NCBI GenBank assembly: GCA_001873075.1
Contig: MNYL01000046.1
Coordinates: forward strand, 1-29,676
Direction of reading: 5' to 3'
Length of the DNA: 29,676 bases
Source: Fibrobacteres bacterium CG2_30_45_31
GTDB taxonomy: Bacteria > Fibrobacterota > Fibrobacteria > Fibrobacterales > Fibrobacteraceae
The stretch's first letter is position 1. Each line of letters opens with the position of its first letter. Under the pieces are notes generated by a model that worked only from the letters and a program-made list of their open reading frames with translations, searched no databases and was not told the origin of the DNA. The translations under genes and the position numbers were made by a program. Shown piece by piece: positions 2,545-29,676 of this stretch.

Positions 2545-2547
2545 TTT

Positions 2548-2610: not shown

Positions 2611-2784
2611 TTGTGTCACTAAGGATCGCCATAAGGCTTATACGGAACTACCCGCTCGTATCCCAGCTCCCTTCAAGCATCGCTTTAACTTCTGCAAAAG
2701 TAGAGCCAAAAACGCCGGGAATATAATGGAACGTCACCGTTCTTGTTGTCATTTTTCCTCCGATCAAAAAAAACGGGGTAAAAA

Positions 2785-3477: not shown

Positions 3478-3483
3478 GTTTCC

Positions 3484-9804: not shown

Positions 9805-9813
9805 GATGGAGCC

Positions 9814-13365: not shown

Positions 13366-16300
13366 ATGTCAGAACAGAATCAATATGACGCATTTATTAG
13401 TTACTCCCGGAAAGATATAGAAGTTGCAGCGTGGTTCCAGAAAGAGATGGAAAAACTTCGCGTTCCAAAAGCTTTGCCTTATCCTGCCGGGATGGAACCT
13501 TTGCCCAGAAAATTGCGCCTCTTCCGTGACCAAACGGATCTGGGAGTTCGCTCCAATAGTTTTTTTGAAGGCCTTAGTGCGAATCTGGCAAAATCCCGCG
13601 ATCTCATTCTTCTTTGCTCTCCTCATGTGCTCCAAAACAATTCGGAGGGGCTGAACTATATTGATTGGGAAATTCGGGAGTTCATTCGAATCCATGGAGT
13701 GGAATATGCGAAGAACCATATTCTCCCAGTAATTATTTATGGCAAGATTCAATCTGGTGATTCACGGGAAGCCTGCATTCCCACAGCTTTAAATGATCTC
13801 GGTGTTGATTTCCGCCAGCGCAATCTTCCGGTACTTGGAAGTCCTGAAATTTCAAGGGTTTCTAAAAACGATAAAGAACATGTCTTACTTCAGTGCTTGT
13901 CTTATTTAGCAAGGGTAGAGACGAATATTGTTGACAATCGTTTCCAGAAGGAGCGCCGCCGCACAATGCAACGGTGGCTTTTGTTAGCTGGTGCCGTGAT
14001 ACTTGCTTTATCTGGATTAGCAATTTGGGCTCTTGTCGAAAAGGATAAAACCAGCGAAACACTTTCTGAATCCTATTTCCAGGAAGCGTCCCGACTGATT
14101 GATGAGCACCAGGCAGGCTTGGCCTTGGCCTATCTCGCCGCCAGTATGGACAGTAAAAACAATAATGCCGCCTATCAACGTTTTTCTGGACTTATGAAAA
14201 ATCGATCCTGGCTGGTTCAGTTGGATACTCTTGCTTCATCACCACATTCAGGAATTCATATAGCTTGGTCCAATCGTCAGGAAAAAGAGGCTGTTTTTTC
14301 TTTAGAGGATTCTGCACAAGGAAAAGGGACTCTTTCCATTTATCAGTTAGACCCGTCTAGACCACCTGTTTCCATTTCAGTAAAAAATTTTCGTACCGGA
14401 ATTTTTTCTCCAGATGGTCAAAGCCTGCTTACTTTACATGGAGTCGCGCCGGAGCAGATTTGTAAACGCTGGAACGTCTCCACCGGAGAATTCAGCGATT
14501 CACTCCTTTTGTCCGACGGCTCTGTACCTGTTTTTTTGTCCTCTTCTGCTAGTTATGCTCTGCTTTTAACAAGCGATCAGAAGACAATCCGCCTAGTGTC
14601 TATGAAAGATGGAAGCATTCGATTTGAGCAAACTGTAACAAGTGGCTGGGAGTGGAATAAATTTGCTTTTGATGAAAAAGAAAAGATCTTGGCTTTTGGT
14701 GTTAAACGTGAGCTTAATTTTCAGCATTTAAATGAAATGTCGGCATCAGAATTTGCTTTCCAGACGATTGACATTGCATCCGGTTCTATTTTGGCTCAGA
14801 TTCATGGGGCTGGTATTTTATCGGATTGGGTTTTGTCTCCTGATGGGGTACATTTAGCCTATAGTTATTCCACGGGACGTCCCGATGACTGGCTTCTGGT
14901 TAATCAGGATCTGTCAAGCGGGAAGCCATCCTGGACGCTTCCTTTGAAGGCCTGCCAGCGTTTACTGTTTAATCCGGATGGCATTCACTTAGCTGCAGAT
15001 CTTGGAACGTTTGGCGTTGAGATCCATAATGTCTATAGAGATTCGGAATCAAAGATCCATATCGATCTTTCCTCGCCTGTAAAAAACTGGACGTTTAGCC
15101 ATGATGGTCGCCGTTTGGCAATTACAACGGAGCAAGCTTCGCTTTGCGTTTTTAATGTCCGTGATGGAAGCGAAGCTGTGGAAAGGCGCCTCTTGAATAC
15201 GGATGTTTATGGAATTCAGTTTTCGAAGACAAATCGTATTTTGACAGTGAATACAGGGAATGGGGAAAAAAGCTTTGCTTTGCAAGTCAGTCCCGTTGGC
15301 GTTCAGACTATTATGTCTAAATGGTCTCCCAGCGTTTTGATGAATGTATTTGTGGAAAAAAACTCATCTGCCTTCGCGTTTATTCTTGGAAGTTACAGCT
15401 CGGGAACCATTCTGGAAATGCATGGAATGGTCGATAGTTTTCCAGATTCCATTCGACAATTAAAGCTTTCGGAAACTCCGAATTGCGGTGCTTTTTCTCC
15501 TGACGGTCGATTTTTGGTTCTGGGATCGGGTAAAAAAACAGATGAAAATGGAACCGGGCAGTTGGATGTTTATAAAATTTCAGAGGGAACACTATGGCAA
15601 CCTCAAAAATGGGAAAAATGGGTCAGTGAAAAGGCTCCGTTTGCGGTTACGCAAATTTCCTTTAGTCCAGACGGGAAACGAATTCTGGTAAATTCCAATA
15701 CCTTGCAGAAAGCCGCACAAAAGGCTCTAGTCTACGATATGCAGGCATTGGCAAAGCCTGTCTTTTCACTGAACCATGGAGGAACAGTCTCTCAGGCTGC
15801 TTTTACTCCGGACGGGAAATATGTGATTACAGCAGGTTCGGACAGAATGCTTAAAGGCTGGGACATCGCGTCTGGAAACATGCTCTGGAAGCAGGAATTG
15901 GAATCTTTTCCATCGGCACTGGCAATTTCCAGCCAGGGAAAAATTGCGTGCGGGATGCGGCTTCTCCATGCAAATGGGCGCGTTCAGATTTTCGCAGAAA
16001 ATGGAAAACCGGAATGGTCTTCCAGGGTTTTGCGTAATGGAGTCAATCAGTTAGACTTCAACGGAAAAGGGTCTTTATTGGGAGTCGCCTTTTTCAATCG
16101 TGAGGCTTTGATTTTTGATGTTTCCAGCGGTCGTATTCGCTCGCAAGATCTCGTTCAGGAAGGGGATATCACCAGTATGCGTTTCTGGTCCGATTCCGAT
16201 CAGGACATCTTATGCATTGGGGGGAAAACTGAAAACAATTTAGGTTTTGTGGAATATTGGGATCCCGCCACCTCAAAAAAGATCGGGGATATCACCAGAC

Positions 16301-17961
16301 ACTCGGACAAAGTTCAGGGAATAAACGTTTCCACAAAGGAAGGAATTCTATCTTGGTCGAATGCTCTTCTAGTTGCTCCAAGGCCTCTTCAGGTTTCAAC
16401 AGAAGGAGATGACAATTATGATCAACTTGCTGGCGAATTGGGGGGATGGACGCTCAATCAATGGAATGTTCCAGAAGAATTTGAAAGGACTAAGAACTTA
16501 AGTTCACCGAAAGGACCCCTGACTCGAATGCTTTGTTGGCTGCAGGATACCAGTGAAACGCGAGATTTGTATACGGGAAGCAAGGATCCTTTGAAATCCT
16601 ATCTGAGTCAGTTGGTGCAGGGTAGTGAAAGAAACATTGAGCGTGCACTGGATATTCGCCCGGACTGCGTTCCGGCGTGGAAAAACTACTGGTTTTCACA
16701 GGCTCTGGATGTCGCCGAGAAACGATTTATGGGCTCAGTCACAGGAAAAAGCCGAGATGAATGGTTGAAGCGACGTCTGCAATGGGCCGGTTTAACTCCC
16801 GCCCAGAAACGCGCCTATCTGCAGGCAGATCCCGAAGGAATGCGCTTAGCAGATTTTCAGACCCGCGAGCTTTATACGAATCATCCAAACTCTGCATCAG
16901 CTTGGATGGAACGCGGAATTTTTCTGAAGCTTGCAAACGAAAATGTACAGGCTAAAGAGGTCTTGGAAAATGCCGCCAAACTGGATCCGAAGAATTCCGA
17001 GATAAAAAACGAACTGGTCGGACTCGAAACATCCCCTCAGGCCATCTCGTCTCTCCTTGCACAATCGCTACCCATGCTACAGAATGACGATTCTGCGACA
17101 GTGGAACGCATCTGCAATTATGCAGAAAAATTTTTGCCAAACTGGGTGATGGCAAACGGTGCTCTTCATACCGGGGAAAAACTGGATGAAATTCTTGCTT
17201 TGCTCAGGCAGAAGGTTAAGAGTTCTATCTCTTTTGACGACCAATTGAAGATTCAAATATTGGCCGAGAAAATGACTTCATTATTCTTCTATTTACCCGA
17301 AGGGCCCAAGTTATCCAATACCTTTAACCAAGGACTTCTGGATTTATTTGATCATAGCTCTCTCTCGGTTGCTTCCGAAAGCAGAAGGGCTATTCAATCA
17401 ATGCTTGCCTTCAATATGTTGTTGCAGAACCGAACGACTGAAAGTCTGAAGATATATGATGAGATTCATGCAGAATATCCTCTTGAAAAAGCCATTCTCT
17501 CTACAGGACGGGCTTACGCTCTTAGTTTGCAGGGAAACAATGCTCAAGCTGTTGGAATGCTCCGTGCCATCGTTTCCAATGGCGGCGACTTCACAGCGAT
17601 ACTGGCGCAGTCTATTCTTACGGATTTTGCCATTTTTCATTATCGTGGAATTGAACTGCCTTGCGAAAAGGAATTAAGAGAAGAAATCCTGAAGATGGCG
17701 CAACCTTCCCTGTCAGGAGGTTTAAATGTGGTGCAAGTCATTCCTCGGGGGCAGTGCGCAAAAATTGGAATTAAAGTCGGAGATCGCCTCACTTGGTATG
17801 ATGGTTATCCTGTGACGGACTTGCAGCAATTCATCTATGCAAGGCAAATGGATAAATTTTGGGAAAAAACAAATTCCCGGGAAATGCGTATCCTGCGTAA
17901 CGGGGAAATTTTTAAATTTACTGTCAATCCAGGCCTTGTGGGCTTAGGTTTAACACAGTAA
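13366..17961 (+). CDS. TIR - TM helix - tandem beta-propellers (WD40/PD40-like SPDG blades) - TPR-like helical region - PDZ
   Basis: TIR 'YDAFISYSRKDIEVAAWFQKEM...LRLFRDQTDLGV...LILLCSPHVL...YIDWEIREF' (about 13384-13845). TM 'WLLLAGAVILALSGLAIWALV' (13975-14034) after 'KERRRTMQR'. About 12-14 blades: 'FSPDGQSLL', 'LSPDGVHLA', 'FNPDGIHLA', 'FSHDGRRLA', 'FSPDGRFLV', 'FSPDGKRIL', 'FTPDGKYVITAGSDRMLKGWD' (about 14233-16380). Helical TPR-like region at about 16633-17655. PDZ 'VVQVIPRGQCAKIGIKVGDRLTWYDGYPV...NPGLVGLGL' (about 17713-17958). Confidence 0.85.
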   Translation: MSEQNQYDAFISYSRKDIEVAAWFQKEMEKLRVPKALPYPAGMEPLPRKLRLFRDQTDLGVRSNSFFEGLSANLAKSRDLILLCSPHVLQNNSEGLNYIDWEIREFIRIHGVEYAKNHILPVIIYGKIQSGDSREACIPTALNDLGVDFRQRNLPVLGSPEISRVSKNDKEHVLLQCLSYLARVETNIVDNRFQKERRRTMQRWLLLAGAVILALSGLAIWALVEKDKTSETLSESYFQEASRLIDEHQAGLALAYLAASMDSKNNNAAYQRFSGLMKNRSWLVQLDTLASSPHSGIHIAWSNRQEKEAVFSLEDSAQGKGTLSIYQLDPSRPPVSISVKNFRTGIFSPDGQSLLTLHGVAPEQICKRWNVSTGEFSDSLLLSDGSVPVFLSSSASYALLLTSDQKTIRLVSMKDGSIRFEQTVTSGWEWNKFAFDEKEKILAFGVKRELNFQHLNEMSASEFAFQTIDIASGSILAQIHGAGILSDWVLSPDGVHLAYSYSTGRPDDWLLVNQDLSSGKPSWTLPLKACQRLLFNPDGIHLAADLGTFGVEIHNVYRDSESKIHIDLSSPVKNWTFSHDGRRLAITTEQASLCVFNVRDGSEAVERRLLNTDVYGIQFSKTNRILTVNTGNGEKSFALQVSPVGVQTIMSKWSPSVLMNVFVEKNSSAFAFILGSYSSGTILEMHGMVDSFPDSIRQLKLSETPNCGAFSPDGRFLVLGSGKKTDENGTGQLDVYKISEGTLWQPQKWEKWVSEKAPFAVTQISFSPDGKRILVNSNTLQKAAQKALVYDMQALAKPVFSLNHGGTVSQAAFTPDGKYVITAGSDRMLKGWDIASGNMLWKQELESFPSALAISSQGKIACGMRLLHANGRVQIFAENGKPEWSSRVLRNGVNQLDFNGKGSLLGVAFFNREALIFDVSSGRIRSQDLVQEGDITSMRFWSDSDQDILCIGGKTENNLGFVEYWDPATSKKIGDITRHSDKVQGINVSTKEGILSWSNALLVAPRPLQVSTEGDDNYDQLAGELGGWTLNQWNVPEEFERTKNLSSPKGPLTRMLCWLQDTSETRDLYTGSKDPLKSYLSQLVQGSERNIERALDIRPDCVPAWKNYWFSQALDVAEKRFMGSVTGKSRDEWLKRRLQWAGLTPAQKRAYLQADPEGMRLADFQTRELYTNHPNSASAWMERGIFLKLANENVQAKEVLENAAKLDPKNSEIKNELVGLETSPQAISSLLAQSLPMLQNDDSATVERICNYAEKFLPNWVMANGALHTGEKLDEILALLRQKVKSSISFDDQLKIQILAEKMTSLFFYLPEGPKLSNTFNQGLLDLFDHSSLSVASESRRAIQSMLAFNMLLQNRTTESLKIYDEIHAEYPLEKAILSTGRAYALSLQGNNAQAVGMLRAIVSNGGDFTAILAQSILTDFAIFHYRGIELPCEKELREEILKMAQPSLSGGLNVVQVIPRGQCAKIGIKVGDRLTWYDGYPVTDLQQFIYARQMDKFWEKTNSREMRILRNGEIFKFTVNPGLVGLGLTQ

Positions 17962-17969
17962 AGTAAAAA

Positions 17970-18363
17970 GAAAAGCTCGTGTCTCATAGAAAGAGTGATA
18001 TGAAAAAGGCACTTCCCAAAGCAAAACTGGAGAAAGCCTGTTTCTTACGCGCTCAAAAGGTGGGATGAACTCTGCCTCTATTGCAAGGATGGCGAACTTC
18101 AGATTGACAACAGCATCGTGGAAAGAAGCATCCGTCCTGTTGCTGTGGGGCGCAAGAACTGGTTTTTCGCAGAAAGCGAGGATGGTGCGGACTGGGCTGC
18201 CGCATTTTATTCTCTTATTGAGACCTGCAAACTAGACAAAGTCAACCCCGCTGAATATTTGAGCAAAGTATTCATATATCTCCCAGACTATGAAGACGAG
18301 GACATGGCTGGATGGGCCACTTTGCTCCCTGATGCCTATACCATGAAACTCGGAATAGAGTAA
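17970..18363 (+). pseudogene. 3' remnant of an IS66-family transposase (TnpC), 5'-truncated and frameshifted
   Basis: 'YALKRWDELCLYCKDGELQIDNSIVERSIRPVAVGRKNWFFAESEDGADWAAAFYSLIETCKLDKVNPAEYL' is the conserved IS66 C-terminal block. The upstream 'ALPKAKLEKA' lies in another frame (frameshift near 18040). The remnant starts directly after the stop of the 13366-17961 gene. Confidence 0.8.
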
Positions 18364-18798
18364 TCTCTGAAATGAAAAAGGATTGCCGAGGGGTTGCTCT
18401 TTTTTAGGCTACATGTAGATCATCGAACGAGTATGGTTCATCAACAAAGACTGAGTACATTTTTCATATTTACGCGTAAAAAGTCAGGAAGTTCACATGT
18501 AACAACAATTGCACGTATTTCCAGCCTCAGCGGGGCAGAAATTCTCGCCTTATTAAGGCCCTATCCAGAGTCATGTCAGCCCATTCAGGCGTCGTCATCG
18601 CCGATGCCGGAGTTTCTGTCTCCAGGCGCATAAATGAAAGGAGCTCTATGGACATTGAGATCTACAACTGATAAAAGAAAACTGGATGACGCCCCTAAAA
18701 AAGAGTTATACTACCATGTAGATAAAAAATTAACTGGTTTCCTTAAAGCTATATTAAAAAATCAAGTTTCTTGTGAGCACATTGGGAGAGAGTGTGTT

Positions 18799-20181
18799 AT
18801 GAAAAAAATCATTTTATTGACATCAGACGGTCCGCAGGGCCACGATCTGGCAAAGCAGCTGGCGATATTGGCTCATCAGCAACAATTTGAGCTCACGCCC
18901 ATTTTCGGTTTTACGCTGACTGATTTCTTTTCGGGATTCATGAAGAAACGATTACAGATCATCGACATTTCCATGGACGAAGATCCGCTAGTCTATGACA
19001 AGGTTCATCCCATCCATACGCCCAATCATTTGTATGTCAGCAGGACCCACACTCCACTGAATTTCCGTCCCATGGTCATTCCCATCCGGCATGGAGAAGA
19101 ACTGATCAACGCCTTCCCGGAATTCGGAGAAAAGAATTCCAATGATGAGCTCAGCTTCTGGCTAGACCGGAAGCTTCCTGAATTCGTTCACCAAAGGCAG
19201 TCTTTTGTACCAATTATTGGACGTTTTCTGGACATGAAAAGAATTTCTGAAGAAAGAAAAAATGAGATTCGCAAGGAGGGCTCCATTTTTCTCAGCTATC
19301 GCAGTTCCGAAAATCAAAGCATCGCGACGTTGGCAAGTCAGATTGAATCAAAATATGGAAAGCGATGCCGATTTTTCGCACCCGGGGTCATCTCGCATGA
19401 GGCCATGAGCCGGATGCGTCGCTGGAATCTGCTTTCTCTTCTCGATCGGTATATACTGTCCGCAGACCAGATATGGATCTGTCTGAGCGAGGACTATTTC
19501 TATTCGTGGTGGACGTTCGGTGAATTCCTCATGGCTGTACATCGGCAGACAGCAAACGCCATCGGTCATAAACCTCTTCTCAAGAAATACCGGAACGGAG
19601 CTCTAGAAGAATGGCAGGAAACAGAATGGCCAGAGATCACGGAAGCGGAACACAGGCGTATCTCCAGATATTTTGCCTTCTGCGATAGTTTCCAGATGGG
19701 GCCGGAGGCCTTTATCTCCCACGAAGACATCCAGAACCTGAAGCTTAAATTTGCGGAAGGCTACTATCGTGATGATGTCTGGAAAAAAGACTTCTGGCTT
19801 AATCCCATAGTGGAATGCCCTGTATGCCGGAAACGTTCAGGCCCTTACAACAAAAGACCTATAGAAGAATTTCTCTGGCACGGTCAACAAAAGGAAGAGA
19901 ATCCCGCCCAACAAGGAATCGTCTACCGTGGCAACGGCATCATGGAGATCGACTATGCAGCCATGCCATCATTTCTGGATCAGGGAATCACTTGCCGGTG
20001 TGGTCATACTATCACACTGAAGAAAGGCCCCATGCAATACCTCCACGTTTTTCTTCCGCCCAAAAGTCAAGTTCCTTTTTCCGCAGCTCGGGAACTGGCC
20101 CGTAAATGGGAATTCCCGGAAGCATCGGTCATTGGAAACAATCTGATCGCGATACAGAGTTTTTTAATAAATGAAGACTAA
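18799..20181 (+). CDS. TIR-like domain protein with unknown N-domain and C-terminal Cys4-type zinc ribbon
   Basis: Preferred start is the ATG at 18799, with GGGAGAG 8 nt upstream. The ORF-track start at 18634 has no SD. TIR-like segment 'SIFLSYRSSENQSIATLASQIESKYGKRCRFFAP...QIWICLSEDYFYSWWTFGEFLMAV' (about 19279-19548). 'CPVC'...'CRCGH' at about 19816-20007. Confidence 0.6.
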   Translation: MKKIILLTSDGPQGHDLAKQLAILAHQQQFELTPIFGFTLTDFFSGFMKKRLQIIDISMDEDPLVYDKVHPIHTPNHLYVSRTHTPLNFRPMVIPIRHGEELINAFPEFGEKNSNDELSFWLDRKLPEFVHQRQSFVPIIGRFLDMKRISEERKNEIRKEGSIFLSYRSSENQSIATLASQIESKYGKRCRFFAPGVISHEAMSRMRRWNLLSLLDRYILSADQIWICLSEDYFYSWWTFGEFLMAVHRQTANAIGHKPLLKKYRNGALEEWQETEWPEITEAEHRRISRYFAFCDSFQMGPEAFISHEDIQNLKLKFAEGYYRDDVWKKDFWLNPIVECPVCRKRSGPYNKRPIEEFLWHGQQKEENPAQQGIVYRGNGIMEIDYAAMPSFLDQGITCRCGHTITLKKGPMQYLHVFLPPKSQVPFSAARELARKWEFPEASVIGNNLIAIQSFLINED

Positions 20182-20209
20182 CCGTAGATTTTTTAACAGG
20201 AGATAGAAG

Positions 20210-20827
20210 ATGAACCTTTATTATAATAACAATGATAAAACGCCAAAACACAAGACATTCCTGAGTTTTCACCATAAGGACGAAGGCTATAGGGACAGGT
20301 TTGAACAAGAATATTCCGAGGACAGGGGCGATTATGTTTCTAGATCAGTAAAAGACGGAGACATTGATCCTACTTGGCCAACAGAAAGAATCCGGCAAAA
20401 AATCAGGGATGAATTCATTAGCGACGCTACTGTAACCCTTGTGCTGATCAGTCCAGATACTTGGAAACGCAAGCATGTGGACTGGGAAATCAGTTCCAGT
20501 ATCCGTGACACAAAAAATAATCCAAGGAATGGTCTGCTGGGAATTCTGCTTCCAAATTATCAATATACAATGGATGGATGCAGTTATGCGGATATAAAGC
20601 GCACAGAGTCCGGCCGTCTTTATAATCCATTCACAATTCCGCCACGCTTGTTTGAAAACGTCCAATGCGGTTATGCCAAAATCTATTCCTGGCCCGCAAC
20701 GTACAACGACGTGAAAAAATGGATTCATGACGCCTATCTGGGAAAAGAAATAAAAAATCCAAGCAATGCATATCCGCTGTTTTCCAAGAACCGGAATGAC
20801 GATCAAAGATACTGGCAAAAGGAATAG
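20210..20827 (+). CDS. ThsB-like TIR protein (DUF1863 / MTH538 TIR-like family)
   Basis: 'KTFLSFHHKDEGYRDRFEQEY' and 'ATVTLVLISPDTWKRKHVDWEISSSI...GLLGILLP' follow the DUF1863/ThsB pattern (FiSf...D ... S..t..s.WV.WEI ... iigv.l). AGGAGA SD 7 nt upstream. 28-nt gap to the previous gene. Confidence 0.75.
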   Translation: MNLYYNNNDKTPKHKTFLSFHHKDEGYRDRFEQEYSEDRGDYVSRSVKDGDIDPTWPTERIRQKIRDEFISDATVTLVLISPDTWKRKHVDWEISSSIRDTKNNPRNGLLGILLPNYQYTMDGCSYADIKRTESGRLYNPFTIPPRLFENVQCGYAKIYSWPATYNDVKKWIHDAYLGKEIKNPSNAYPLFSKNRNDDQRYWQKE

Positions 20828-20855
20828 ACAACCCACAGCACAGAGGATACAGAAA

Positions 20856-22856
20856 ATGACTGAATTTCGACAGCCGTTATCCATACATTTCGTATGGCAT
20901 CCGGGCGACAGCGAACAACTAGAGAACATAATTGACTTCTGCAGCAAGTCCCTGAAAAGGGACCCAGAAAAGCCCTTTTCCCGTTCCATCAGCATTCCCT
21001 TGTTCTTTCTGACCTCCGAAGGCAAAAATCCTCCAGAAATGTGTCTTTACAAAGCCGAAAAGACAATCGTCTTTGTCTTCATAAGCAAGCGTATCGTCGC
21101 CGACGATGCCTGGACAGAATTCATTGAAAAACTGAAAGGAAAATGCGATGCCATCGTCCCCATTGCCCTGGATTCCACAGCATTCAACATAGACAATTCA
21201 CTGAACTCATACAATTTCATCCGGGCATATGAATATGAAGCGGCTTTCTATCGGGAAAGAATCCTGATTGCCGTCGCTCATGAGATATACCGTCTGGCCC
21301 TGAACGAATCCCTGAAAGAAATGAACTTGGGAAAAGATTCCGCAGTCCGCATTTTTCTGAGCCATGCAAAAGATGCCGGACCAGGGATTTCGATCGCGGA
21401 AACACTAAAAAACTTTCTGGATCAGTCCGTAATGCGGAATTTTTTTGATGCATTCGACATTGCACCAGGGTACTGTTTCGATGCAGAAATCGAAGCCCAC
21501 ATCAAAGAATCAACATTAGTGGCGATCCACTCAGATCCTTATTCAAGCAGATACTGGTGCCAACGGGAAATAGGATGCGCCAAAGCAGCCGACAGGCCCA
21601 TGATCGCCGTCGATGCTCTGAATGAATATGAAGACAGAAGATTTCCGCTGGCGGCCAATATTCCAGGAATCCGCGTGCGTTGTGAAAAAGAAGAAAAAAT
21701 TTCAGAGTCCGATGTTCTTCGGATCATGATTTGTGCGCTGCTGGAAACGATAAGATTCTTTTATTCCAGAAGGCTGCTGTCCGCTTATCAGGAATCAGGC
21801 TGGATTCCCAAGGGCGCTATCCTCCTGCAGCGTCCTCCTGAACTTGCCGATGTCCAAAAATACAGCGGAGGCTTTCCACAGACAAAAGAAATATATTATC
21901 CAGAACCGACAATTTTTCAGGAAGAAGCCGATGCCTTCAAAAAAATAGGATTTACCGTTCTGACACCTCTCTCAGCACATCGCAGATGCAAGCCACTGAA
22001 GATAGGCCTATCCTTTTCGGAACCAGACAAAAATTCTTTGACAACGATTGCGCAAAGAGCAATCCACCTCCAGCAGCTTTCACAGGATCTTGCGAGAAAC
22101 CTAATCACAGGAAACAACCGATTGATCTATGGTGGCGATTTGAGACCCAAGGGCTTTACTGAATGCATTTATTTTGAAGCTTTGGCAACGCAGACACGGC
22201 TGCGTTCAAATGAGCAATACCTGACAAACTATCTTGCTTGGCCGTTGTACCTGAATCCGCAGGAACCCCTTGTCGACTGGAAAGCTCGTTTCAGGGACAT
22301 CGCCGTTACAAAAACCGTGAAATATCCTGACGATGTGGATGCTCTTATCTTCGATAAAGAGCATTTTCTTCCACCTGTGACCAAAGAAAACTGGTATGTC
22401 TGGAGCCGTTGCCTGACACAGATGCGCAACGAAATGATAAAAAACTGCGATCTGCGAATTTGTGCAGGCGGACGGCTCACGGAATACAAAGGAAAGATGC
22501 CCGGAGTCCTGGAAGAAATTTTCATCGCTTTTAAAGAAAAAAAGCCACTATTCCTTCTCGGTGGATTCGGGGGAGTAACAGAAAGCTTCTGCCAGTATAT
22601 GGAAATAGGGAAGGCTCCAGACAATATCAAAAAAGAATGGCAAATTGGGCACAATCTTGGATACAGGGAACTTCTGGATTTCGCAGACCAGTTTGGCATG
22701 CATTATGCAGATACCTATAATCTTCCCAAATTGAATTTCGATATGCTGAACAACGGATTGGATGAGAATGACAACAAAAAATTGTTTCACACGACATTCA
22801 CTGATGAAATTATTTTCTTGATTCAGAAGGGAATAGAGAACAAATTTTCTCATTGA
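20856..22856 (+). CDS. TIR-like + TIR + C-terminal SLOG (SMF/DprA-LOG-like) domain protein
   Basis: Start ATG at 20856 (AGAGGA upstream) is preferred over 20766, which overlaps the previous gene. TIR-like 1: 'LSIHFVWHPGD...KTIVFVFISKRIVADDAWTEFIEKL' (about 20874-21185). TIR 2: 'VRIFLSHAKDAGPGISIAETLKNFL...NFFDAFDIAPG...TLVAIHSDPYSSRYWCQREIGCAK' (about 21345-21635). SLOG: 'LIYGGDLRPKGFT', 'ICAGGRLTEYKGKMPGVLEEIFIAFKEKKPLFLLGGFGGVTE' (about 21993-22610). These Gly-rich loops resemble the ThsA/LOG SLOG domains. Confidence 0.7.
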   Translation: MTEFRQPLSIHFVWHPGDSEQLENIIDFCSKSLKRDPEKPFSRSISIPLFFLTSEGKNPPEMCLYKAEKTIVFVFISKRIVADDAWTEFIEKLKGKCDAIVPIALDSTAFNIDNSLNSYNFIRAYEYEAAFYRERILIAVAHEIYRLALNESLKEMNLGKDSAVRIFLSHAKDAGPGISIAETLKNFLDQSVMRNFFDAFDIAPGYCFDAEIEAHIKESTLVAIHSDPYSSRYWCQREIGCAKAADRPMIAVDALNEYEDRRFPLAANIPGIRVRCEKEEKISESDVLRIMICALLETIRFFYSRRLLSAYQESGWIPKGAILLQRPPELADVQKYSGGFPQTKEIYYPEPTIFQEEADAFKKIGFTVLTPLSAHRRCKPLKIGLSFSEPDKNSLTTIAQRAIHLQQLSQDLARNLITGNNRLIYGGDLRPKGFTECIYFEALATQTRLRSNEQYLTNYLAWPLYLNPQEPLVDWKARFRDIAVTKTVKYPDDVDALIFDKEHFLPPVTKENWYVWSRCLTQMRNEMIKNCDLRICAGGRLTEYKGKMPGVLEEIFIAFKEKKPLFLLGGFGGVTESFCQYMEIGKAPDNIKKEWQIGHNLGYRELLDFADQFGMHYADTYNLPKLNFDMLNNGLDENDNKKLFHTTFTDEIIFLIQKGIENKFSH

Positions 22857-22906
22857 ATAAAAATCGTTGAATAATAATTTGGAGCTCTTAGGAATAAAAC
22901 CGTTCA

Positions 22907-23530
22907 TTACTTCCCATTATAACGTTCAAAATCTCTCTGAAATTTGAAGGGGGCTCCAATATATCCTAGACTCCCCATAGATTCTAACCAAGTAACAAAA
23001 TTTAAAATCAAAGCATCATTTTGTACCTTTTTCTGCCCAATTCCCTTATGTATAAATACTTGATATTTTGAAGGCACTCGAACCGCATCTTTGCCCCAAT
23101 ACCAATATTTCTGTGAAATCAGCACATACTTGCTCCGCAAATCTCGAGTATAATTATCTTTATTTACGAGCCCGTTCTGCAAACTGTGGTGTGAATCTTC
23201 TTGAATAAAAAATTTTGTCCTTTCATCAGTATGATATATGTTGTCACCATATCTCTGCTTTTTACTGCCATTCATTACAGGTCTTTTATAAAAAAAGCGC
23301 GAATCATTCCAATATTGATCAAACGTCAATTTTCCCTGCACCTGCATTGCATAAACAAGTCGTCCCTTCATTGAGCCACCCTTGGCGGCGGAACCAAAGC
23401 CCAAAATCCAATCACCCGAATTAGCATGCTCTCTAATAAATGGCTTACAGGTAGCCAACGTACAATAGGGAGGAAACGGATTAGGTGCAAACCCATAATC
23501 CCTTGTGATGATATAGCTGAAAAGGACCAT
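22907..23530 (-). CDS. Nmad2-like (nucleotide-modification-associated domain 2) protein
   Basis: 'YIITRDYGFAPNPFPPYCTLATCKPFIREHANSGDWILGFGS' matches my recollection of the Nmad2 signature (D.GFAPNPF..CTLA.CKP.IR...GDW). Start at Met37 of the track ORF (23530) avoids overlap with the upstream gene. An earlier start is not excluded. Confidence 0.5.
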   Translation of the reverse strand: MVLFSYIITRDYGFAPNPFPPYCTLATCKPFIREHANSGDWILGFGSAAKGGSMKGRLVYAMQVQGKLTFDQYWNDSRFFYKRPVMNGSKKQRYGDNIYHTDERTKFFIQEDSHHSLQNGLVNKDNYTRDLRSKYVLISQKYWYWGKDAVRVPSKYQVFIHKGIGQKKVQNDALILNFVTWLESMGSLGYIGAPFKFQRDFERYNGK

Positions 23531-23549
23531 TCTAAGCCTGCAAAAAAAA

Positions 23550-24017
23550 CTAACATGTTTCTCTTGGCGAAGCAACGGAGGGACGTGCATTCCCTGTACT
23601 GTCCTGCCAAATATTTGCTCCTTCAATAGCGGATGCAATTGAGTCTAAATTCCATGCCACCAAAGCATCACCGTAATCATTTAGCGCGTTAGGGACGTCG
23701 GAGTCAGTTGCTCCTCGTAAATAAACACCTATTATGCGTTTCGTTCCACTCTTGGCAGCATATTCAAGCTCCCAATTAACCCAATCCCGCTTCGCTGTTT
23801 TAGGGCTTATAAGGACCACAATTTTTCCAGCCCATTCTATCTGCCTTCGAAGAAGCGATTTTATGTAGTCTTCATTATTGGCATTGTTCGGCTCGCTTTC
23901 TACAATAGAGCTGTCGCGTATATCATAGTCTTGTCTTGATAGCAATTCTTTGAATTTTGGAATAGCATCCTCATCGCCTCCATAATGGGAAATAAATAGA
24001 TTAATTTTCTGACTCAT
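23550..24017 (-). CDS. TIR-like protein (DUF1863/ThsB-like fold), translationally coupled to the TS homologue
   Basis: 'INLFISHYGGDEDAIPKFKELL' and 'KIVVLISPKTAKRDWVNWELEYAAKSGTKRIIGVYL' match the DUF1863 pattern. Its ATG overlaps the stop of the upstream gene (ATGA at 24014-24017). Confidence 0.7.
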   Translation of the reverse strand: MSQKINLFISHYGGDEDAIPKFKELLSRQDYDIRDSSIVESEPNNANNEDYIKSLLRRQIEWAGKIVVLISPKTAKRDWVNWELEYAAKSGTKRIIGVYLRGATDSDVPNALNDYGDALVAWNLDSIASAIEGANIWQDSTGNARPSVASPRETC

Positions 24018-25024
24018 AATGTTTTCGCTCCTTTTTTATAAAATGCATCCCATCTATTCCAAATCTCCAAGTACAATGGGTTTGTGCAACGACTCAAGAT
24101 ATCTTCTTTTAAGCGAAGATATTCTTTTTTCCTTGCCACATATGCCGAAATAATGAGCATAATGTTGTTGTAGGCTTGGCTTTCTGAGTCAAGGCTGGAA
24201 ATCGTTTCTAAATGAGTTTCATCTGGATCTTCAGTGACAATACGTTTCATTCTCTTATAAATTTTTTCAACAACAGAGTCAAAATAACATTTAGAAACAG
24301 ACAAAGAATCGGTATTTTTACTGAACTTATTAGAATAAATTTTCATATTGTCAAAATCGTTCTCATATAGATGTAAACTGTCGCTATAATGAGCATAAGT
24401 GCCGACTTCAAGTCCCAACCATCCAGCGAGTATCTCCTGCATACTTGTAAATTGTACAAAATTATAAGGAAGGCCTCTAAAGGCATCGTTGCTCCGCATG
24501 ATTTGAGTCCACTCCAATCTGTGTTCCCGGACTTTTAATAAAGAACAAATGTTACACGGAATATCTGCACTATTAGGCACCCCGGTGTCTTTTGGCAAAT
24601 CTTTCTCTGGATCCCATATCAATATTACCATTTGTCGTGATTCCGGCTTGTTATGTAAAATATTAAAGGCTTTCTCTAATTGATCCATTCCGAAATTATG
24701 ACGAATTCTATGGCCATAGGCGCCATGATAATGCACATCATTTCCTGAATATTTATATAAATTCGGATTCCAATAGTTAACTATTTCTGCAATATCACTG
24801 CCACTTAAAATCCAGATCAATTCGGCTAAGGCATAAGAGATGCTCATTGGCGGCATTCTATTGGAAACCCATTTTTCTTTTGGATTTTCAATTGAGAATA
24901 AGACATGTAGAAACTCATATGTACTGCCGGAACGACTAGGTACTTTCTTATTCAACGCTTTTAAGCGTTCTGCAGCCGACATCCATACCTCATTTGCCGT
25001 TTCCCCAGAACACAATATTGCCAT
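24014..25024 (-). CDS. Thymidylate-synthase-fold enzyme (ThyA / dUMP hydroxymethylase-like)
   Basis: 'DIPCNICSLLKV' aligns with ThyA 'PPCHAFFQFYV' (catalytic Cys at nt 24554-24556). 'QIMRSNDAFRGLPYNFVQFTSMQEILAGWLGLEVGTYAHYSDSLHLYEN' aligns with E. coli '[50 protein letters not shown]'. 'YGHRIR' aligns with 'YG.QWR'. Confidence 0.8.
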   Translation of the reverse strand: MAILCSGETANEVWMSAAERLKALNKKVPSRSGSTYEFLHVLFSIENPKEKWVSNRMPPMSISYALAELIWILSGSDIAEIVNYWNPNLYKYSGNDVHYHGAYGHRIRHNFGMDQLEKAFNILHNKPESRQMVILIWDPEKDLPKDTGVPNSADIPCNICSLLKVREHRLEWTQIMRSNDAFRGLPYNFVQFTSMQEILAGWLGLEVGTYAHYSDSLHLYENDFDNMKIYSNKFSKNTDSLSVSKCYFDSVVEKIYKRMKRIVTEDPDETHLETISSLDSESQAYNNIMLIISAYVARKKEYLRLKEDILSRCTNPLYLEIWNRWDAFYKKGAKTL

Positions 25025-25028
25025 TTTC

Positions 25029-26690
25029 TTACTCCTTTATTAAATCATTTATGCCCCATTTAGGAGGATAAAAATATGAGATCGGTCCCTGGAGGCTGGG
25101 CCTGAACTGTTGCTTTATTCTTTTCCTTCCATGACTGGGCGATTCCTCCGGATATGCAACTCTGGAATATTTGTCTATTTCACAAAACAGATTCTGGCAG
25201 TCAATTAACTGCAAAGGCCGACCCCATAATGTTTGAAATTTCAATCCACGTGAATCAAATTCTTTTTCCTGTGAAGCAGACATATATCGAACAATATCTT
25301 CTTCAGGACAGCGGCAAGAATGATTAAAACACTTCTGTATCCCTTGATGCGCTCCGGGGCCGACAACGACAAAAGACATCTCGTCAAAATTGCACAATTG
25401 GCTATAATTTATATCGATGGCATACTGAAAGGCTAAAAATTTTCCAATGGTCGGATATGAAAGCAATATTTCATAAAGATCCTTCAGTGTTTTTGCCGCA
25501 CCTATCTTACCTGAAATTTTATCCTTCATCATATATTCCATGAGTTTCAAATTATTCTGGTGTTTTCTTTTAAATCCAAAAGCACTCCCTCCTGAAGGCA
25601 TGATATAAGCGGCTGAATATATTTTTTCCTTCTTGAGCAGCATTGATGTCAATATTTTATCATATTCCGCATAATTGTAATTTTTAAATGATATTTCGCT
25701 TAAATTTCTTTCCAGTTCGCACCACGTATCAATGCGATTAAACATTTTAAACAGGATAATTCTAAAAAACATATCTTCCGGAGTAAAATCATTCTCACTT
25801 TTGTATATGGCATTCTTAATTAAAAACTGGCTGACCCTGTCTGAAGCTCTATAGGCATTCGTAAATTTGTACTTCTGTAAAATTTTATCATCAGTCCAAG
25901 GAAAAGGTGCCCCTTGAAGCCGTGCAAAAAAGATTTGTTGCCGTTCAAAGGCAAATTTCCAATAAGCATCATATATCACTGATGGTTTAAAAATGATTCT
26001 GTTTATATAAACTGCCTTTTGAGCAAGCTTTTGATCCAATCCATTTTCTCTTAAAGACAGGGGCAAGGGATCGATTTGTCCACATTCATTTAAAATGATT
26101 TTCAATGCGATGGATACGGCTTGAGCCAACGCTTTATTATTATTTATAATCGTCAATTTCTTTTTGATTTCCGACTTTTGTGATAACTCTTGATAGCATT
26201 TCAAAATCATTTGTGTTTTTTCTGGAGTATAATCGCTAATGATACTGGCCCTTTTTATCCAAAAATATCCGGATACCTGTAACCCTTTCATGATGGCTTT
26301 TTCTGGAGAGACAATATCTTTCACGACCGATCTACTTATTCCTTCCGCAATACCATATACATATGTGGATAGCCATGATCGATCCAAAAGAACAATCTTT
26401 CCCGCCCGCATGTCTGGGATAATATGTCTATAGATATTTTCTATATGCGCCGCAATATGCAATATTTGCAGACTTACTGGATTGATCGGGTTGTTGAAAT
26501 AATTCTTCTGATGGTGATGAATATCATAAACAAGAGCGCCTAATGTTTGGGGTTCTCGACCAGGAAAACTATAAGAAGAGCACGGAAGACCATAATTTTT
26601 TAATTTATCCACCAATTCTGAAACAATGGTTGTTTTCCCTACATGATCTATCCCTTCAAAAACAAACAATTTTCCCTGCATGCTTTCCAT
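25029..26690 (-). CDS. Fusion of a Tmk-like dNMP kinase with a 5-hmdU-DNA-kinase-helical / aGPT-Pplase-type domain
   Basis: Start at Met18 (26690; AGGGAAA upstream). P-loop 'LFVFEGIDHVGKTT' and 'IVLLDRSWLSTYVYG' (the DRY/S motif of thymidylate kinases). C-terminal about 320 aa contain 'FERQQIFFARLQGAPFPWTDDKILQKYKFTNAYRASDRVSQFL'. I recall that block from the helical domain of 5-hmdU DNA kinases and alpha-glutamyl/putrescinyl-thymine pyrophosphorylases. That part of the assignment is from memory. Confidence 0.65.
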   Translation of the reverse strand: MESMQGKLFVFEGIDHVGKTTIVSELVDKLKNYGLPCSSYSFPGREPQTLGALVYDIHHHQKNYFNNPINPVSLQILHIAAHIENIYRHIIPDMRAGKIVLLDRSWLSTYVYGIAEGISRSVVKDIVSPEKAIMKGLQVSGYFWIKRASIISDYTPEKTQMILKCYQELSQKSEIKKKLTIINNNKALAQAVSIALKIILNECGQIDPLPLSLRENGLDQKLAQKAVYINRIIFKPSVIYDAYWKFAFERQQIFFARLQGAPFPWTDDKILQKYKFTNAYRASDRVSQFLIKNAIYKSENDFTPEDMFFRIILFKMFNRIDTWCELERNLSEISFKNYNYAEYDKILTSMLLKKEKIYSAAYIMPSGGSAFGFKRKHQNNLKLMEYMMKDKISGKIGAAKTLKDLYEILLSYPTIGKFLAFQYAIDINYSQLCNFDEMSFVVVGPGAHQGIQKCFNHSCRCPEEDIVRYMSASQEKEFDSRGLKFQTLWGRPLQLIDCQNLFCEIDKYSRVAYPEESPSHGRKRIKQQFRPSLQGPISYFYPPKWGINDLIKE

Positions 26691-26899
26691 ATACGTTTCC
26701 CTAATCGCCTTCACAAATTCGCAGTGAGCTCCCTGTAGCATCCAAATGTATCTATAATATAACTTCTAAAAAGACTTTTATTGCCACCGAAATGTGCCAT
26801 AAATTCAAATCTTTTCAAAGAAAAATTTACACCCATCCATTTGTGATACTTCAGCCGTTTATATATCCCCAAAAGGCTTTTTGAAAACATAGAGGTGCT

Positions 26900-27076
26900 A
26901 TGGATTTCTTTGACTTTGACGATATTTTTGAAAAATATGATCCTTTCATTTATTCGGATTGGTTTGAACGACAGAATATTTCTGATATGCTTAGAAGGGC
27001 TGCGGATTGGATTCCACTTCATAGGGAACTTCTGAATGCATTTTATGATGACTGGATAAATGAACAAAAGGAATGA
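26900..27076 (+). CDS. Possible small acidic protein (58 aa), below the ORF-track cutoff
   Basis: ATG at 26900 with AGAGG 4 nt upstream. Product MDFFDFDDIFEKYDPFIYSDWFERQNISDMLRRAADWIPLHRELLNAFYDDWINEQKE has a protein-like helical composition. It lies antisense to the compositionally odd 130-aa ORF 26711-27103. Confidence 0.3.
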   Translation: MDFFDFDDIFEKYDPFIYSDWFERQNISDMLRRAADWIPLHRELLNAFYDDWINEQKE

Positions 27077-27330
27077 AGACCCTATTATTCTAGACCAGTT
27101 CATAATCTTCTCATATCACGACAGAAAGGAACTCGCTAGACTGCAAAAAGAACACAGGGACAATAATGACGAAGATAGGACACATGGAAAATGAAAGGAA
27201 AAAGAAGACAAAAGTGATTTTCTTTTTGTAGGAATCAAAGCATAAGAAAGAATGGGAAGAGTGAGCTGGGCGAAAAAAGAGTAATCAGAATAACAACAAT
27301 GAAAAAACGCATAGCCCACTCCACCTGAAC

Positions 27331-27828
27331 TTATTCCTGAATTTCGATTCTTTTCAAAAAAGTTCTTTTGTTTCCTAGTGGGAAATCTTCTGCTCGTAAT
27401 TTGCCGTAATAGACAAGATTGAAATAGTTTCTGCTGCCAATGGCGCAGATCCACGATGACTCAAATACTTCATCTTCTGTTTTGTCCCCTATGCATTCAT
27501 CTGGAATTATTTGTTTGACGGCTGGGTCCAACTCATCTTCAGGCTCCCCAAAATAACCGAGGGCCTTAGAAAGTTTCTGTAACTTTCCATAGTCCCAATA
27601 GATATGATCAAAATAGAGGGGTGATTCGTAATAGGCAAGCAGGACATCATGCAACATCTTTCCGAAGTCTTCCCTTAGCCCCAAAATAATGGGTCTTTCG
27701 ACAGAAGGTCTGTCGTCTTTCAGTACCAGAATGGATGGCTGATTCTCGTATTCAATGATTGATAAACAGATTTCGAAATGATTGCGACTGAATGCAATCA
27801 GGGTTGTCTCGGGGGAAATAGTGTTCAT
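27331..27828 (-). CDS. Hypothetical protein (165 aa), no recognised family
   Basis: Start at the second ATG (27828). The AAGAGAGAG SD and the sequence from this Met onward are conserved in the decayed paralogue at 1511-1611, whereas the frame of the first ATG is not. Acidic protein ending 'KRIEIQE'. Confidence 0.55.
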   Translation of the reverse strand: MNTISPETTLIAFSRNHFEICLSIIEYENQPSILVLKDDRPSVERPIILGLREDFGKMLHDVLLAYYESPLYFDHIYWDYGKLQKLSKALGYFGEPEDELDPAVKQIIPDECIGDKTEDEVFESSWICAIGSRNYFNLVYYGKLRAEDFPLGNKRTFLKRIEIQE

Positions 27829-28077
27829 TATAAACTCTCTCTTTCCCATTGTTTATAATATTCCACCTCAAAAAAAATTAGTTAAAGACGCACGAAAAGC
27901 ATTGGCGGAATAGACAAAGTGATGTTTTAACTTTCACAGAAAGCCAATTATGAACGAAGGTAATTTTTCAGAAAAATTCTGGAATAAGAAACTTTTCGTT
28001 AAAAAATTGGGGGTAGGGAAATATGCCGACGAATTAGTCTTATCTATGATTCTTAACATTCATCTTTAGTTCCAACA

Positions 28078-28156: not shown

Positions 28157-29080
28157 CTACAAAGTCCATCCCTTCGATGGAATCCAGTGCGTAAATGGGA
28201 ATGATTCCTGTTCTGATACCAAATTCAATACTGGTAGAATAAATTGTGCAATTTCACTAATGGCATCCTGTAAAGATCCCACTGTTTCCAAGGGCTTGGA
28301 CTTTTTCACAAAACCATGCCATTGACTTTGCTTCGATAAATCAGACCAAAACTCTTCCGTCAATGCAATTGGGGGCTTAGTGGGAAAACTTGTTTTGCGC
28401 CGTTCAAAAGTACTTTTGATTGCGTCAGAAAATTGTGTTTGTTCAAATTCAAACATGCGGGATAAAAGACAAAGATCATAAAAATCTTTCATGCGACTAT
28501 TCGCGATGCCGAGCTTAACCATTGCTTCTATCTTTTCTGCGGCAAGTGTATAATGCGAATAACCCCTGATGTGAGCTTTTGGAAAATCAAGAATGGATGG
28601 GAAATCAATAAATTCAGCTTTAGGCACAACGGCATCACCAAAGCCAATATCAATCTGAATGGGGATGCGAGCCTTTCCAAGCATACCAACCATAGTGATC
28701 CGTACACCATTATATTCCTGCCATTCTTTTATTGGTTCTACTTTCAAAGAACTGATTTGAAACTGAACGCCATCATCCTCATAAGGATCTGAAATCACTT
28801 CGGCAAAAACAGTATGGAGTCGTTCAATGCTGGGATCACCAAAGCCAAGAAGATCAACGTCCTTTGTGACTCGGAAGTTTTGTCCTTTCCAAACCAGGAA
28901 CATGCTTGCACCTTTAAGAATGAACTGATTCACATACTTGGATTGACTCAAGCGGTAAAGTAACCGTTCCAATCCATACCTCGTCAGCAGCAATTCAAAA
29001 TCTGCTCCAAGTTCCTTTGATTTACGCGTAAGCTGTACACGAACAAAATGAGCAGCATTGGGTTGGGTGGGTGTACTCAA
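28157..29080 (-). CDS. abiEii: AbiEii/AbiGii-family nucleotidyltransferase toxin (DUF1814)
   Basis: 'ELLLTRYGLERLLYRLSQS...FILKGASMFLVW', 'TKDVDLLGFGD' and 'IPIQIDIGFGDAVVP' match DUF1814. TTG start overlaps the abiEi stop (TTGA, 29077-29080). Confidence 0.85.
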   Translation of the reverse strand: MSTPTQPNAAHFVRVQLTRKSKELGADFELLLTRYGLERLLYRLSQSKYVNQFILKGASMFLVWKGQNFRVTKDVDLLGFGDPSIERLHTVFAEVISDPYEDDGVQFQISSLKVEPIKEWQEYNGVRITMVGMLGKARIPIQIDIGFGDAVVPKAEFIDFPSILDFPKAHIRGYSHYTLAAEKIEAMVKLGIANSRMKDFYDLCLLSRMFEFEQTQFSDAIKSTFERRKTSFPTKPPIALTEEFWSDLSKQSQWHGFVKKSKPLETVGSLQDAISEIAQFILPVLNLVSEQESFPFTHWIPSKGWTL

Positions 29081-29676
29081 ACGATAGCCTCCATATAGGG
29101 TTTCATGACTTTCAGAACTCTACAAACTTTTGCCGCATCAGTGATTTCGTCCATGGTGGCTTGTTTATTTTTCCATACTTCACGCAAGGCTTCAATTGCC
29201 ACGTCAAGGCCAACCTTGCTTCGGAATTTAAAACAATCAGCAACCGTTCTTGCCGGAGAATAAATCTGGAAACGGAAAGGCCCCACAAGATGCTCTTGCC
29301 TTCCAACGGAATACGTTTTTGGATCTACAATGGTGTAGTTGATGGGAGGATACTGTACTTTGATTTTTCTCCTACCTCGGGGAAGGGTGATCCACACTTC
29401 GTGAGGAAGTTGCGTAGTTATTCCATAAACGCTCAGAGCAGACAGCAGAGAAACAGTACATTCACCCACTTGGCGAACCGCCTCAATAATGGAACTGTGC
29501 TCTATGGCGTAAAACCCATCCTTATCAATAAACAATCCCTTCGCTGATTTTTCTAAAAACCCCTGAGCATAGAGCTTATAGAGGTATCTTCTAGAAACGC
29601 CAAGACTTTCTGCCTCCGCCACTGAGATAAACCCATTTTGCTTAATTTGCTCTAGAATAGTCTCTTTTTTATTCAT
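29077..29676 (-). CDS. abiEi: AbiEi-family antitoxin / transcriptional regulator (type IV TA)
   Basis: N-terminal wHTH 'GFISVAEAESLGVSRRYLYKLYAQGFLEKSAKGLF' and C-terminal 'SPARTVADCFKFRSKVGLDVAIEALRE'. The start codon is the last triplet of the window, so the promoter/operator lies outside it. Confidence 0.85.
   Translation of the reverse strand: MNKKETILEQIKQNGFISVAEAESLGVSRRYLYKLYAQGFLEKSAKGLFIDKDGFYAIEHSSIIEAVRQVGECTVSLLSALSVYGITTQLPHEVWITLPRGRRKIKVQYPPINYTIVDPKTYSVGRQEHLVGPFRFQIYSPARTVADCFKFRSKVGLDVAIEALREVWKNKQATMDEITDAAKVCRVLKVMKPYMEAIV

Follow-up and report, generated by a model that had tools for sequence, protein, structure and literature searches.

The DNA examined here is a stretch of 29,676 nucleotides from Fibrobacteres bacterium CG2_30_45_31 (contig MNYL01000046.1, assembly GCA_001873075.1; the whole stretch is called the window below). 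Our subject is a cassette of three genes in it, g1, g2 and g3, of which the second encodes a TIR protein of the ThsB type and the third a protein that joins a TIR domain to a C-terminal SLOG domain. We consider it reasonably likely that the cassette provides defence by Thoeris-type TIR signalling and is of the kind that has a TIR-SLOG effector, as type IX Thoeris does. Proteins of the window were searched against Pfam, PADLOC v2 (2023) and NCBIfam, and AlphaFold2 models of g1 and g3 were compared with the PDB using Foldseek. The cassette comprises the following features, in window positions:

18753-22856, forward strand: extent of the g1-g3 cassette, from blastn against a near-identical metagenomic contig, L086
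18799-20181, forward strand: g1, a 460-amino-acid open reading frame (ORF), accessory protein
20210-20827, forward strand: g2, a 205-amino-acid ORF, ThsB-type TIR protein
20856-22856, forward strand: g3 (G3 when its family is meant), a 666-amino-acid ORF, ThsJ-like TIR-SLOG protein

The reading rests above all on g3, in which the following regions were delimited:

20856-21305, forward strand: N-terminal alpha/beta domain, amino acids 1-150, from the AlphaFold2 model
21351-21617, forward strand: TIR domain, amino acids 166-254 (PF13676 TIR_2, 2e-9)
21990-22784, forward strand: SLOG domain, amino acids 379-643 (PF18163 LD_cluster2, 'SLOG cluster2', 2.4e-59)

The SLOG domain of g3 belongs to the LD_cluster2 family of Pfam and not to STALD, the family of ThsA. 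The alignment-based model of g3 is confident (predicted local distance difference test, pLDDT, 86.6; predicted template modelling score, pTM, 0.90), and its best match in the PDB is ThsA (6LHX, 1.6e-5), followed by SeThsA (7UXT). It also matches the SLOG domain of BcThsA bound to 3' cyclic ADP-ribose (3'cADPR; 7UXS_B, 4.4e-5, TM-score 0.70 on the target), and further matches are the TIR NADases SARM1, RPS4 and RUN1, the latter two from plants. A g3 profile searched against the PDB by sequence detected no chain, ThsA included. Within the TIR motif W234-C-Q-R-E238, residues W234, C235, Q236 and E238 are invariant in 68 family members, and we take E238 to occupy the position of the catalytic Glu of plant TIRs and SARM1. 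The SLOG motifs YGG(D)L(R)..GFT, PG(V/I)LEE and GGFGG are invariant in the same number of members; in g3, GKMPGVLEE at amino acids 546-554 and PLFLLGGFGGVTE at amino acids 564-576 are near-invariant in the family. There is no SIR2 family match in Pfam and no transmembrane effector, and PADLOC v2 gave g3 only a weak PDC-S66 match. The preliminary description of this DNA had proposed, from the letters and ORFs, a protein with two TIR(-like) domains and a C-terminal SLOG domain that lacks a SIR2 or transmembrane effector. Profile and fold bear out the SLOG domain, the lack of those effectors is confirmed, and one TIR domain with its catalytic Glu stands; the second has no profile support. The N-terminal 150 amino acids form a beta-alpha-beta domain in the model, with a topology that is compatible with TIR but not diagnostic of it, and comparison of this domain with TIR alignments and with SLOG by hhalign, a test of low power, gave probabilities below 4%, and below 2% against TIR, with no link to TIR.

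The partner gene g2 matches the ThsB_TIR family (PF08937, 3e-15) and the PADLOC ThsB model PDLC00428 (2.6e-13), both of which uphold its earlier description as a ThsB-like TIR protein. Aligned by eye, its HVDWEISS corresponds to WVRYEIMK of BcThsB, such that the catalytic Glu is retained, as judged at the sequence level only. Orthologues in two relatives of the cassette, L084 and L085, are 60-61% identical to g2, which is presumably the infection sensor and signal synthase. PADLOC v2 calls g2 ThsB and has no model for g1 or g3, and the 2023 catalogue would therefore call no system here.

A word-indexed search found 842 homologues of g3 with 45-72% identity, mostly full length at about 670 amino acids, and an exhaustive search found 939 clusters at 50% identity (E ≤ 1e-30), nearly all of which span profile positions 1-671. 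The family occurs in Bacillota, Pseudomonadota, Bacteroidota, Verrucomicrobiota, Desulfobacterota and ANME-2 archaea; phage records contain no g3 homologue, and plasmid records contain 11 distant ones that are labelled only 'TIR domain-containing protein'. We counted the neighbours of G3 in 80 genome loci, taking genes within 3.5 kb. One to three small TIR genes lie on the same strand as G3 in 74 of these loci, and the start and stop codons of G3 and its neighbours often overlap, as in L044. Close relatives of g2 (E ≤ 1e-45) stand beside G3 homologues in 18 of the 80, and any g2-like match was found in 58. The co-conservation of the three genes, on which the preliminary description had in part depended, thus holds for small ThsB-like TIR genes with g3 and fails for g1, which has 9 relatives only.

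Family members also differ in how the G3 unit is built. In rare fusions, represented by P0362, P0386 and P0397, the whole unit is joined C-terminally to a ParA-like-TIR-nSTAND1 protein (1569 amino acids), a long TPR array (1849 amino acids) or a trypsin-like peptidase (968 amino acids); fusions of G3 to TIR-nSTAND1, TPR and protease regions are in keeping with a defence hub that receives its input from pattern sensors. Elsewhere G3 is split into two adjacent genes, one for the N-terminal domain and TIR (about 400-470 amino acids) and one for a stand-alone LD_cluster2 SLOG (about 280-310 amino acids), as in L088 (579-2824), L100, L108, L114, L118, L142, L148, L153, L158, L166 and L168. Given this split, the SLOG and TIR parts can work as separate polypeptides.

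The layout of the cassette is that of an ordered set of co-directional genes. The gaps between g1 and g2 (20182-20209) and between g2 and g3 (20828-20855) are each exactly 28 nt, and Shine-Dalgarno-like sites precede all three genes (GGGAGAG for g1, AGGAG for g2 and GAGGA for g3), so that the arrangement first described, three genes in one direction with 28-nt gaps, is borne out. Longer alternative starts at 18634 and 20766 are unlikely, since homologues of g3 share the start Met of the 666-amino-acid form (the MTEF/MxxF position) and since the alignment with the L086 cassette opens at 18753, 46 nt 5' of the g1 ATG. A scan for promoters and terminators gave counts no greater than in shuffled sequence. 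Contig L086 (positions 1-3888) aligns with the window by blastn in two blocks, 18753-20154 and 20719-22856, at 92-93% nucleotide identity. It lacks 564 bp (window 20155-20718), which removes most of g2 and alters the C-terminus of g1, and its DNA 3' of the g3 stop is unrelated to the window. We conclude that L086 is a natural ThsB-less variant of the cassette.

The first gene, g1, is rare: only 9 homologues were found among 5.8 billion proteins. Its product has an N-terminal alpha/beta region, a central TIR-like region (amino acids ~160-270) with the motifs IFLSYRS and SWWTxGE, and a C-terminal region with four Cys that resembles a Zn-ribbon; residues E242, C340, C343, C399 and C401 are invariant among its relatives. 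The match to Pfam TIR_2 (E = 0.009) reaches 17 bits, under the cut-off of 28. Placement by hhalign sets the invariant SWWTxGE on the TIR catalytic helix, without significance, and comparison of three g1 segments with TIR alignments and SLOG by hhalign gave probabilities below 4% throughout, and below 2% for TIR, in a test of low power, as the true TIR of g3 also scored poorly against the ThsB alignment. The AlphaFold2 model of g1 is mediocre (pLDDT 71); its top Foldseek matches include no TIR and are generic two-lobe alpha/beta proteins (periplasmic binding proteins) with low TM-scores, and a g1 profile searched against the PDB by sequence gave nothing meaningful. Hence, of the earlier label 'TIR-like/Zn-ribbon', the second half stands in part, on the four invariant Cys, and the first is not confirmed. 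In three of four contexts examined, the g1 homologue is near or beside a G3 gene: the order is TIR, g2-like, g1-like, G3 in L085 and g1-like, G3 in L086, and in L088 the neighbouring G3 is split into two genes; L087 has no G3 nearby. By these comparisons g1 appears to be an optional, divergent accessory with a TIR-likeness below threshold.

In the mechanism that we favour, phage infection would cause g2 to convert NAD+ into a signal derived from ADP-ribose, with g1 and a giant TIR-WD40 protein encoded upstream as possible further sensors. The C-terminal SLOG domain of g3 would bind this signal, and binding would switch on g3's own TIR, probably by oligomerisation, as in ThsA and TIR-SAVED effectors. 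The activated TIR would then cleave NAD+, and infection would be aborted. Observed directly are the gene structure, the domain identities, the relation of the fold to the ThsA SLOG, the conserved catalytic Glu and the phylum-wide linkage to small TIR genes. By analogy, we infer the SLOG domain to be the receptor and the g3 TIR to be the NADase output, and the identity of the signal has the same basis. We also counted in its favour the island context, that is, a SIR2-TIR protein with an nSTAND1 partner, AbiE, and Lamassu-like genes in relatives.

A closely similar architecture has been described. A defence-island scan for TIR signalling systems, posted as a preprint in December 2025 (Yirmiya et al., bioRxiv 10.64898/2025.12.03.692087), named new Thoeris types, and its Table S2 places effectors described as 'TIR and SLOG' in type IX Thoeris, with ThsJ as the effector. 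The preprint reports that ThsB and ThsJ of Bacillus cereus VD021 defend Bacillus subtilis from phage, and that type IX ThsB makes 3'cADPR upon infection (10.64898/2025.12.03.692087). The preliminary description knew of no experimental characterisation of a TIR-SLOG fusion; with type IX named and the VD021 system shown to defend, that claim to novelty falls. A literature search found no later paper on ThsJ.

Several observations weigh against the mechanism that we favour. In the near-identical cassette of L086, g2 is deleted. The relation of g3 to VD021 ThsJ is remote, with a BLASTP match of 29% over 109 amino acids (4e-8). The SLOG domain retains the LOG-like motifs PG(V/I)LEE and GGFGG, which are compatible with an enzyme too. 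Many G3 genes are in operons with genes for Nmad2, MazG_C, UDG-like, thymidylate-synthase (TS)-like and kinase proteins, and the presence of such nucleotide-metabolism genes means that a simple sensor-effector scheme is incomplete as an explanation. Two further points come from the type IX preprint (10.64898/2025.12.03.692087): a type IX locus of Paenibacillus macerans with the order TIR, effector, TIR gave no defence, and added 3'cADPR triggered no type IX toxicity, the authors leaving the activator open. Given that 3'cADPR did not trigger toxicity, the role of the SLOG domain as a receptor in type IX is unproven.

The nucleotide-metabolism genes recur in the window itself, in a block that converges on g3:

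22907-23530, reverse strand: Nmad2 protein (PF18753, 6e-69), convergent with g3, with 50 nt between the stops
23550-24017, reverse strand: ThsB-type TIR protein of 155 amino acids (PF08937, 4.5e-21; PADLOC ThsB model PDLC00418, 2.6e-50, end to end)
24014-25024, reverse strand: thymidylate-synthase-family enzyme (PF00303, 1e-24)
25029-26741, reverse strand: fusion of a deoxythymidine monophosphate (dTMP)-kinase-like domain and a 5-hydroxymethyldeoxyuridine (5-hmdU)-DNA-kinase helical domain (PF18723, 1.7e-102; PF02223, 6e-13)

The true start of the Nmad2 protein is likely Met37 of its ORF, as judged from an alignment, and the TS-family gene has the motif RSND...GLPYN, typical of enzymes that use deoxyuridine monophosphate (dUMP). 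Among the 80 genome loci, Nmad2 is close to G3 in 33, MazG_C in about 20, a UDG-like gene in about 15 and the TS-like gene with the kinase in about 12. Beside G3 these genes are almost all co-directional, and in L044 overlapping codons link TIR, Nmad2, TIR, G3, MazG_C and UDG-like genes in that order. L031 has the kinase, TS, TIR, Nmad2 and G3 genes. We also made counts centred on Nmad2, in 80 metagenome loci of which 27 are well flanked. Wherever upstream sequence exists, a TIR gene (150-180 amino acids; 228-254 in two) is directly upstream of Nmad2, and we conclude that the ThsB-type TIR is an obligate partner of Nmad2. The kinase is present in 18 of the 27 well-flanked loci, TS in 11, MazG_C in 9 and G3, whole or split, in 11. 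In a neighbour-joining tree of G3 proteins, linkage to the Nmad2 module appears in at least six separate lineages. A literature search for Nmad2 in this sense found no paper, the string matches being unrelated uses, and the words 'Nmad2', 'MazG', 'thymidylate' and 'kinase' were not found in the accessible part of Yirmiya et al. (10.64898/2025.12.03.692087). The linkage of G3 to the TIR-Nmad2 module is a lead seemingly undiscussed in the accessible literature.

These counts, the recurrence of the linkage across at least six separate lineages, the presence of the module beside g3 in the window in convergent orientation, and the invariant LOG-like motifs (PGxLEE and GGxGG) argue for a different explanation of g3, which we nevertheless hold to be unlikely: g3 would be an enzyme or processing hub of a nucleotide-modification pathway and not a signal-gated NADase. 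Its TIR, its SLOG or both would have N-glycosidase or transglycosylase activity towards nucleotides of the pyrimidine or ADP-ribose type. Their partners would be the TIR-Nmad2 pair and, in addition, either the TS-like and 5-hmdU-kinase-like enzymes or MazG_C with the UDG-like protein, and the pathway would either yield a modified nucleotide (a signal or a poison) or remove it. In a variant of this idea, what ThsB makes would be converted or degraded by the SLOG domain, and this would account for the failure of 3'cADPR alone to activate type IX (10.64898/2025.12.03.692087). However, over half of the G3 loci have no Nmad2-module genes, and the validated two-gene ThsB-ThsJ system defends alone, according to the same preprint. 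Sensor SLOG domains of the ThsA type may have retained such motifs too, in which case the motifs are no proof of catalysis.

The surroundings of the cassette also speak against such a hub. No Nmad2 module was found in the examined flanks of the closest relatives of the cassette, L084, L085 and L086. At about position 22900 the G+C content falls from ~45% in the cassette to about 36-39% in the Nmad2 cluster and beyond (23000-28000), the module by itself having about 37-39%. Because the G+C content differs, the orientation is opposite and the module is absent from the flanks of the nearest relatives, the cassette and the Nmad2 block were probably acquired separately and have been juxtaposed here independently.

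A composite pathway seems to us just as doubtful as a nucleotide-modification hub. Here the TIR-SLOG protein would be more than a depleter of NAD+ like ThsA: it would stand at the centre of a pathway in which TIR signalling is linked with the chemistry of pyrimidine nucleotides. Its SLOG domain would sense or process a modified nucleotide that comes from the module enzymes or from thymidine-hypermodifying phages. The inactivity of 3'cADPR alone towards type IX Thoeris would then have an explanation as well. If functional coupling of G3 and Nmad2 were true, TIR immune signalling would be tied to modified-pyrimidine metabolism.

Quite improbable, in our view, is the feed-forward loop that the preliminary description had allowed for, in which the signal sensed by the SLOG domain of g3 would also be the product of the g3 TIR, with activation spreading from molecule to molecule. 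In its favour, TIR domains include both cyclases and hydrolases, the g3 TIR keeps its catalytic Glu, and the sensors and the effector share this fold. However, a self-amplifying consumer of NAD+ would need tight insulation, of which none is evident, and the failure of added 3'cADPR to set off type IX toxicity (10.64898/2025.12.03.692087) also speaks against it. It is very improbable that g1, g2 and g3 are unconnected TIR defence genes, each acting alone, that merely share a defence island: the island is full of unrelated TIR genes, g1 is rare and L086 has lost g2, but G3 and small TIR genes run in the same direction in 74 of 80 loci, from Bacillota to archaea, with short or overlapping gaps.

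The Thoeris-type signalling system that we favour may have a further component in this clade, encoded upstream of the cassette and separated from it by a transposase remnant:

13366-17961, forward strand: TIR-transmembrane-WD40-TPR protein of 1531 amino acids (Pfam beta-propeller, TPR and weak TIR_2 matches)
18118-18363, forward strand: C-terminal fragment of an IS66 transposase, an 81-amino-acid ORF (PF13817 and PF03050)

The 1531-amino-acid protein has an N-terminal TIR-like region followed by a transmembrane segment, WD40 propellers, TPR repeats and a C-terminal domain. In L084, a TIR-WD40 homologue (49% identity) is directly downstream of the G3 homologue, which is itself 72% identical to g3, and in L085 a TIR-WD40 fragment (54% identity) is downstream of G3. 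In the window, the gene is upstream of the cassette, beyond the IS66 fragment, whose position suggests that a rearrangement moved the two apart. In this clade, the TIR-WD40 protein is probably a further sensor belonging to the system. The boundaries drawn in the preliminary description omit partners that recur with g3, namely the TIR-WD40 protein and the Nmad2 module.

The rest of the window contains further candidate defence genes and some others. On the forward strand, positions 6011-8275 encode a 754-amino-acid protein with a C-terminal RyR domain (PF02026, 1e-20) and no assignment for the remainder, and positions 8449-13305 encode a SIR2_2-TIR_2 fusion (451 amino acids) followed by an nSTAND1 NTPase (1163 amino acids), a candidate defence pair. 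A Fib_succ_major protein is also encoded upstream in the window; it agrees with an origin in Fibrobacteres bacterium CG2_30_45_31, from which a protein 100% identical to g3 is on record. On the reverse strand, ORFs of 130, 112 and 172 amino acids lie between the kinase gene and AbiE (26711-27849); those of 130 and 172 amino acids have no Pfam match. At the edge of the window, also on the reverse strand, is a pair of AbiEii toxin and AbiEi antitoxin genes (28157-29676), and this pair confirms the defence island. Lamassu-like genes are found near relatives of the cassette.

TIR-SAVED and SARM1 proteins provide a general precedent for the proposed effector: in both, a domain that senses a ligand is joined to a TIR NADase, which becomes active when the ligand drives assembly. 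As noted above, the Foldseek matches of g3 include SARM1. The sensor differs, being SAVED or ARM in those proteins and SLOG in g3, as does the signal, which is a cyclic oligoadenylate or nicotinamide mononucleotide (NMN)/NAD+ in the known cases.

Among Thoeris systems, type I (ThsA, with SIR2 and SLOG, and ThsB) resembles the cassette in combining ThsB-like producers with a SLOG protein, and the g3 SLOG fold is nearest to ThsA. By contrast, g3 is without SIR2, its SLOG domain is LD_cluster2 and not STALD, and its presumed output is a TIR domain. We rejected membership of type I, as g3 has no SIR2 and no STALD match in Pfam. Type III Thoeris (van den Berg et al. 2024, cited in 10.64898/2025.12.03.692087) is described as a SLOG effector accompanied by several TIR proteins, and the cassette is like it in that a single gene for a protein with a SLOG domain has several TIR genes around it. 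In addition, TIR1 of the Pseudomonas aeruginosa type III system resembles the small TIRs beside G3 genes (1e-17). We rejected membership of type III as well: the NCBIfam model ThcB4 scores 30.5 bits on g3 against a cut-off of 220, through the TIR only. G3 relatives in L044 and L029 are also under the cut-off, and g1 and g2 have no type III match in NCBIfam.

Type IX is the closest of the known types. We recovered the VD021 ThsJ locus through its ThsB sequence; ThsJ is a protein of 623 amino acids with TIR_2 (weak), LD_cluster2, LD_cluster3 and weak STALD matches. A G3-family profile matches ThsJ at E = 4.5e-14, collinearly in three segments (the TIR, the start of the SLOG and the PGxxEE-GG motif), and one TIR partner from P. 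macerans is 52-57% identical to TIR genes beside G3-family genes. In both systems a ThsB-type TIR gene adjoins a gene for a protein of 620-670 amino acids composed of an N-terminal region, a TIR, a linker and an LD_cluster2 SLOG; both have a defence-island setting, and one or several ThsB genes flank the effector. The two differ in that ThsJ lacks the YGGDLR..GFT motif seen in g3, that the window also encodes g1 and the giant TIR-WD40 protein found in this clade, and that many G3 loci carry genes for Nmad2, MazG_C, UDG-like, TS-like or kinase proteins. The preliminary description had allowed for a locus that is already a catalogued Thoeris subtype. In architecture that is essentially the case, although the sequence relation to ThsJ is remote. 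Its interpretation of the locus in terms of SLOG, TIR and Thoeris logic is broadly correct. We conclude that the cassette, as far as its domains and gene order indicate, is a divergent member of a catalogued architecture, that of type IX Thoeris. Type IX is validated as a defence system, and the window belongs to a much larger and more diverse branch of its architecture. With about 940 clusters at 50% identity in bacteria and archaea, this branch offers natural variants through which the activator of type IX and the role of its SLOG domain become testable, among them split effectors, a near-identical cassette without ThsB, the rare g1, and fusions to STAND and TPR regions.

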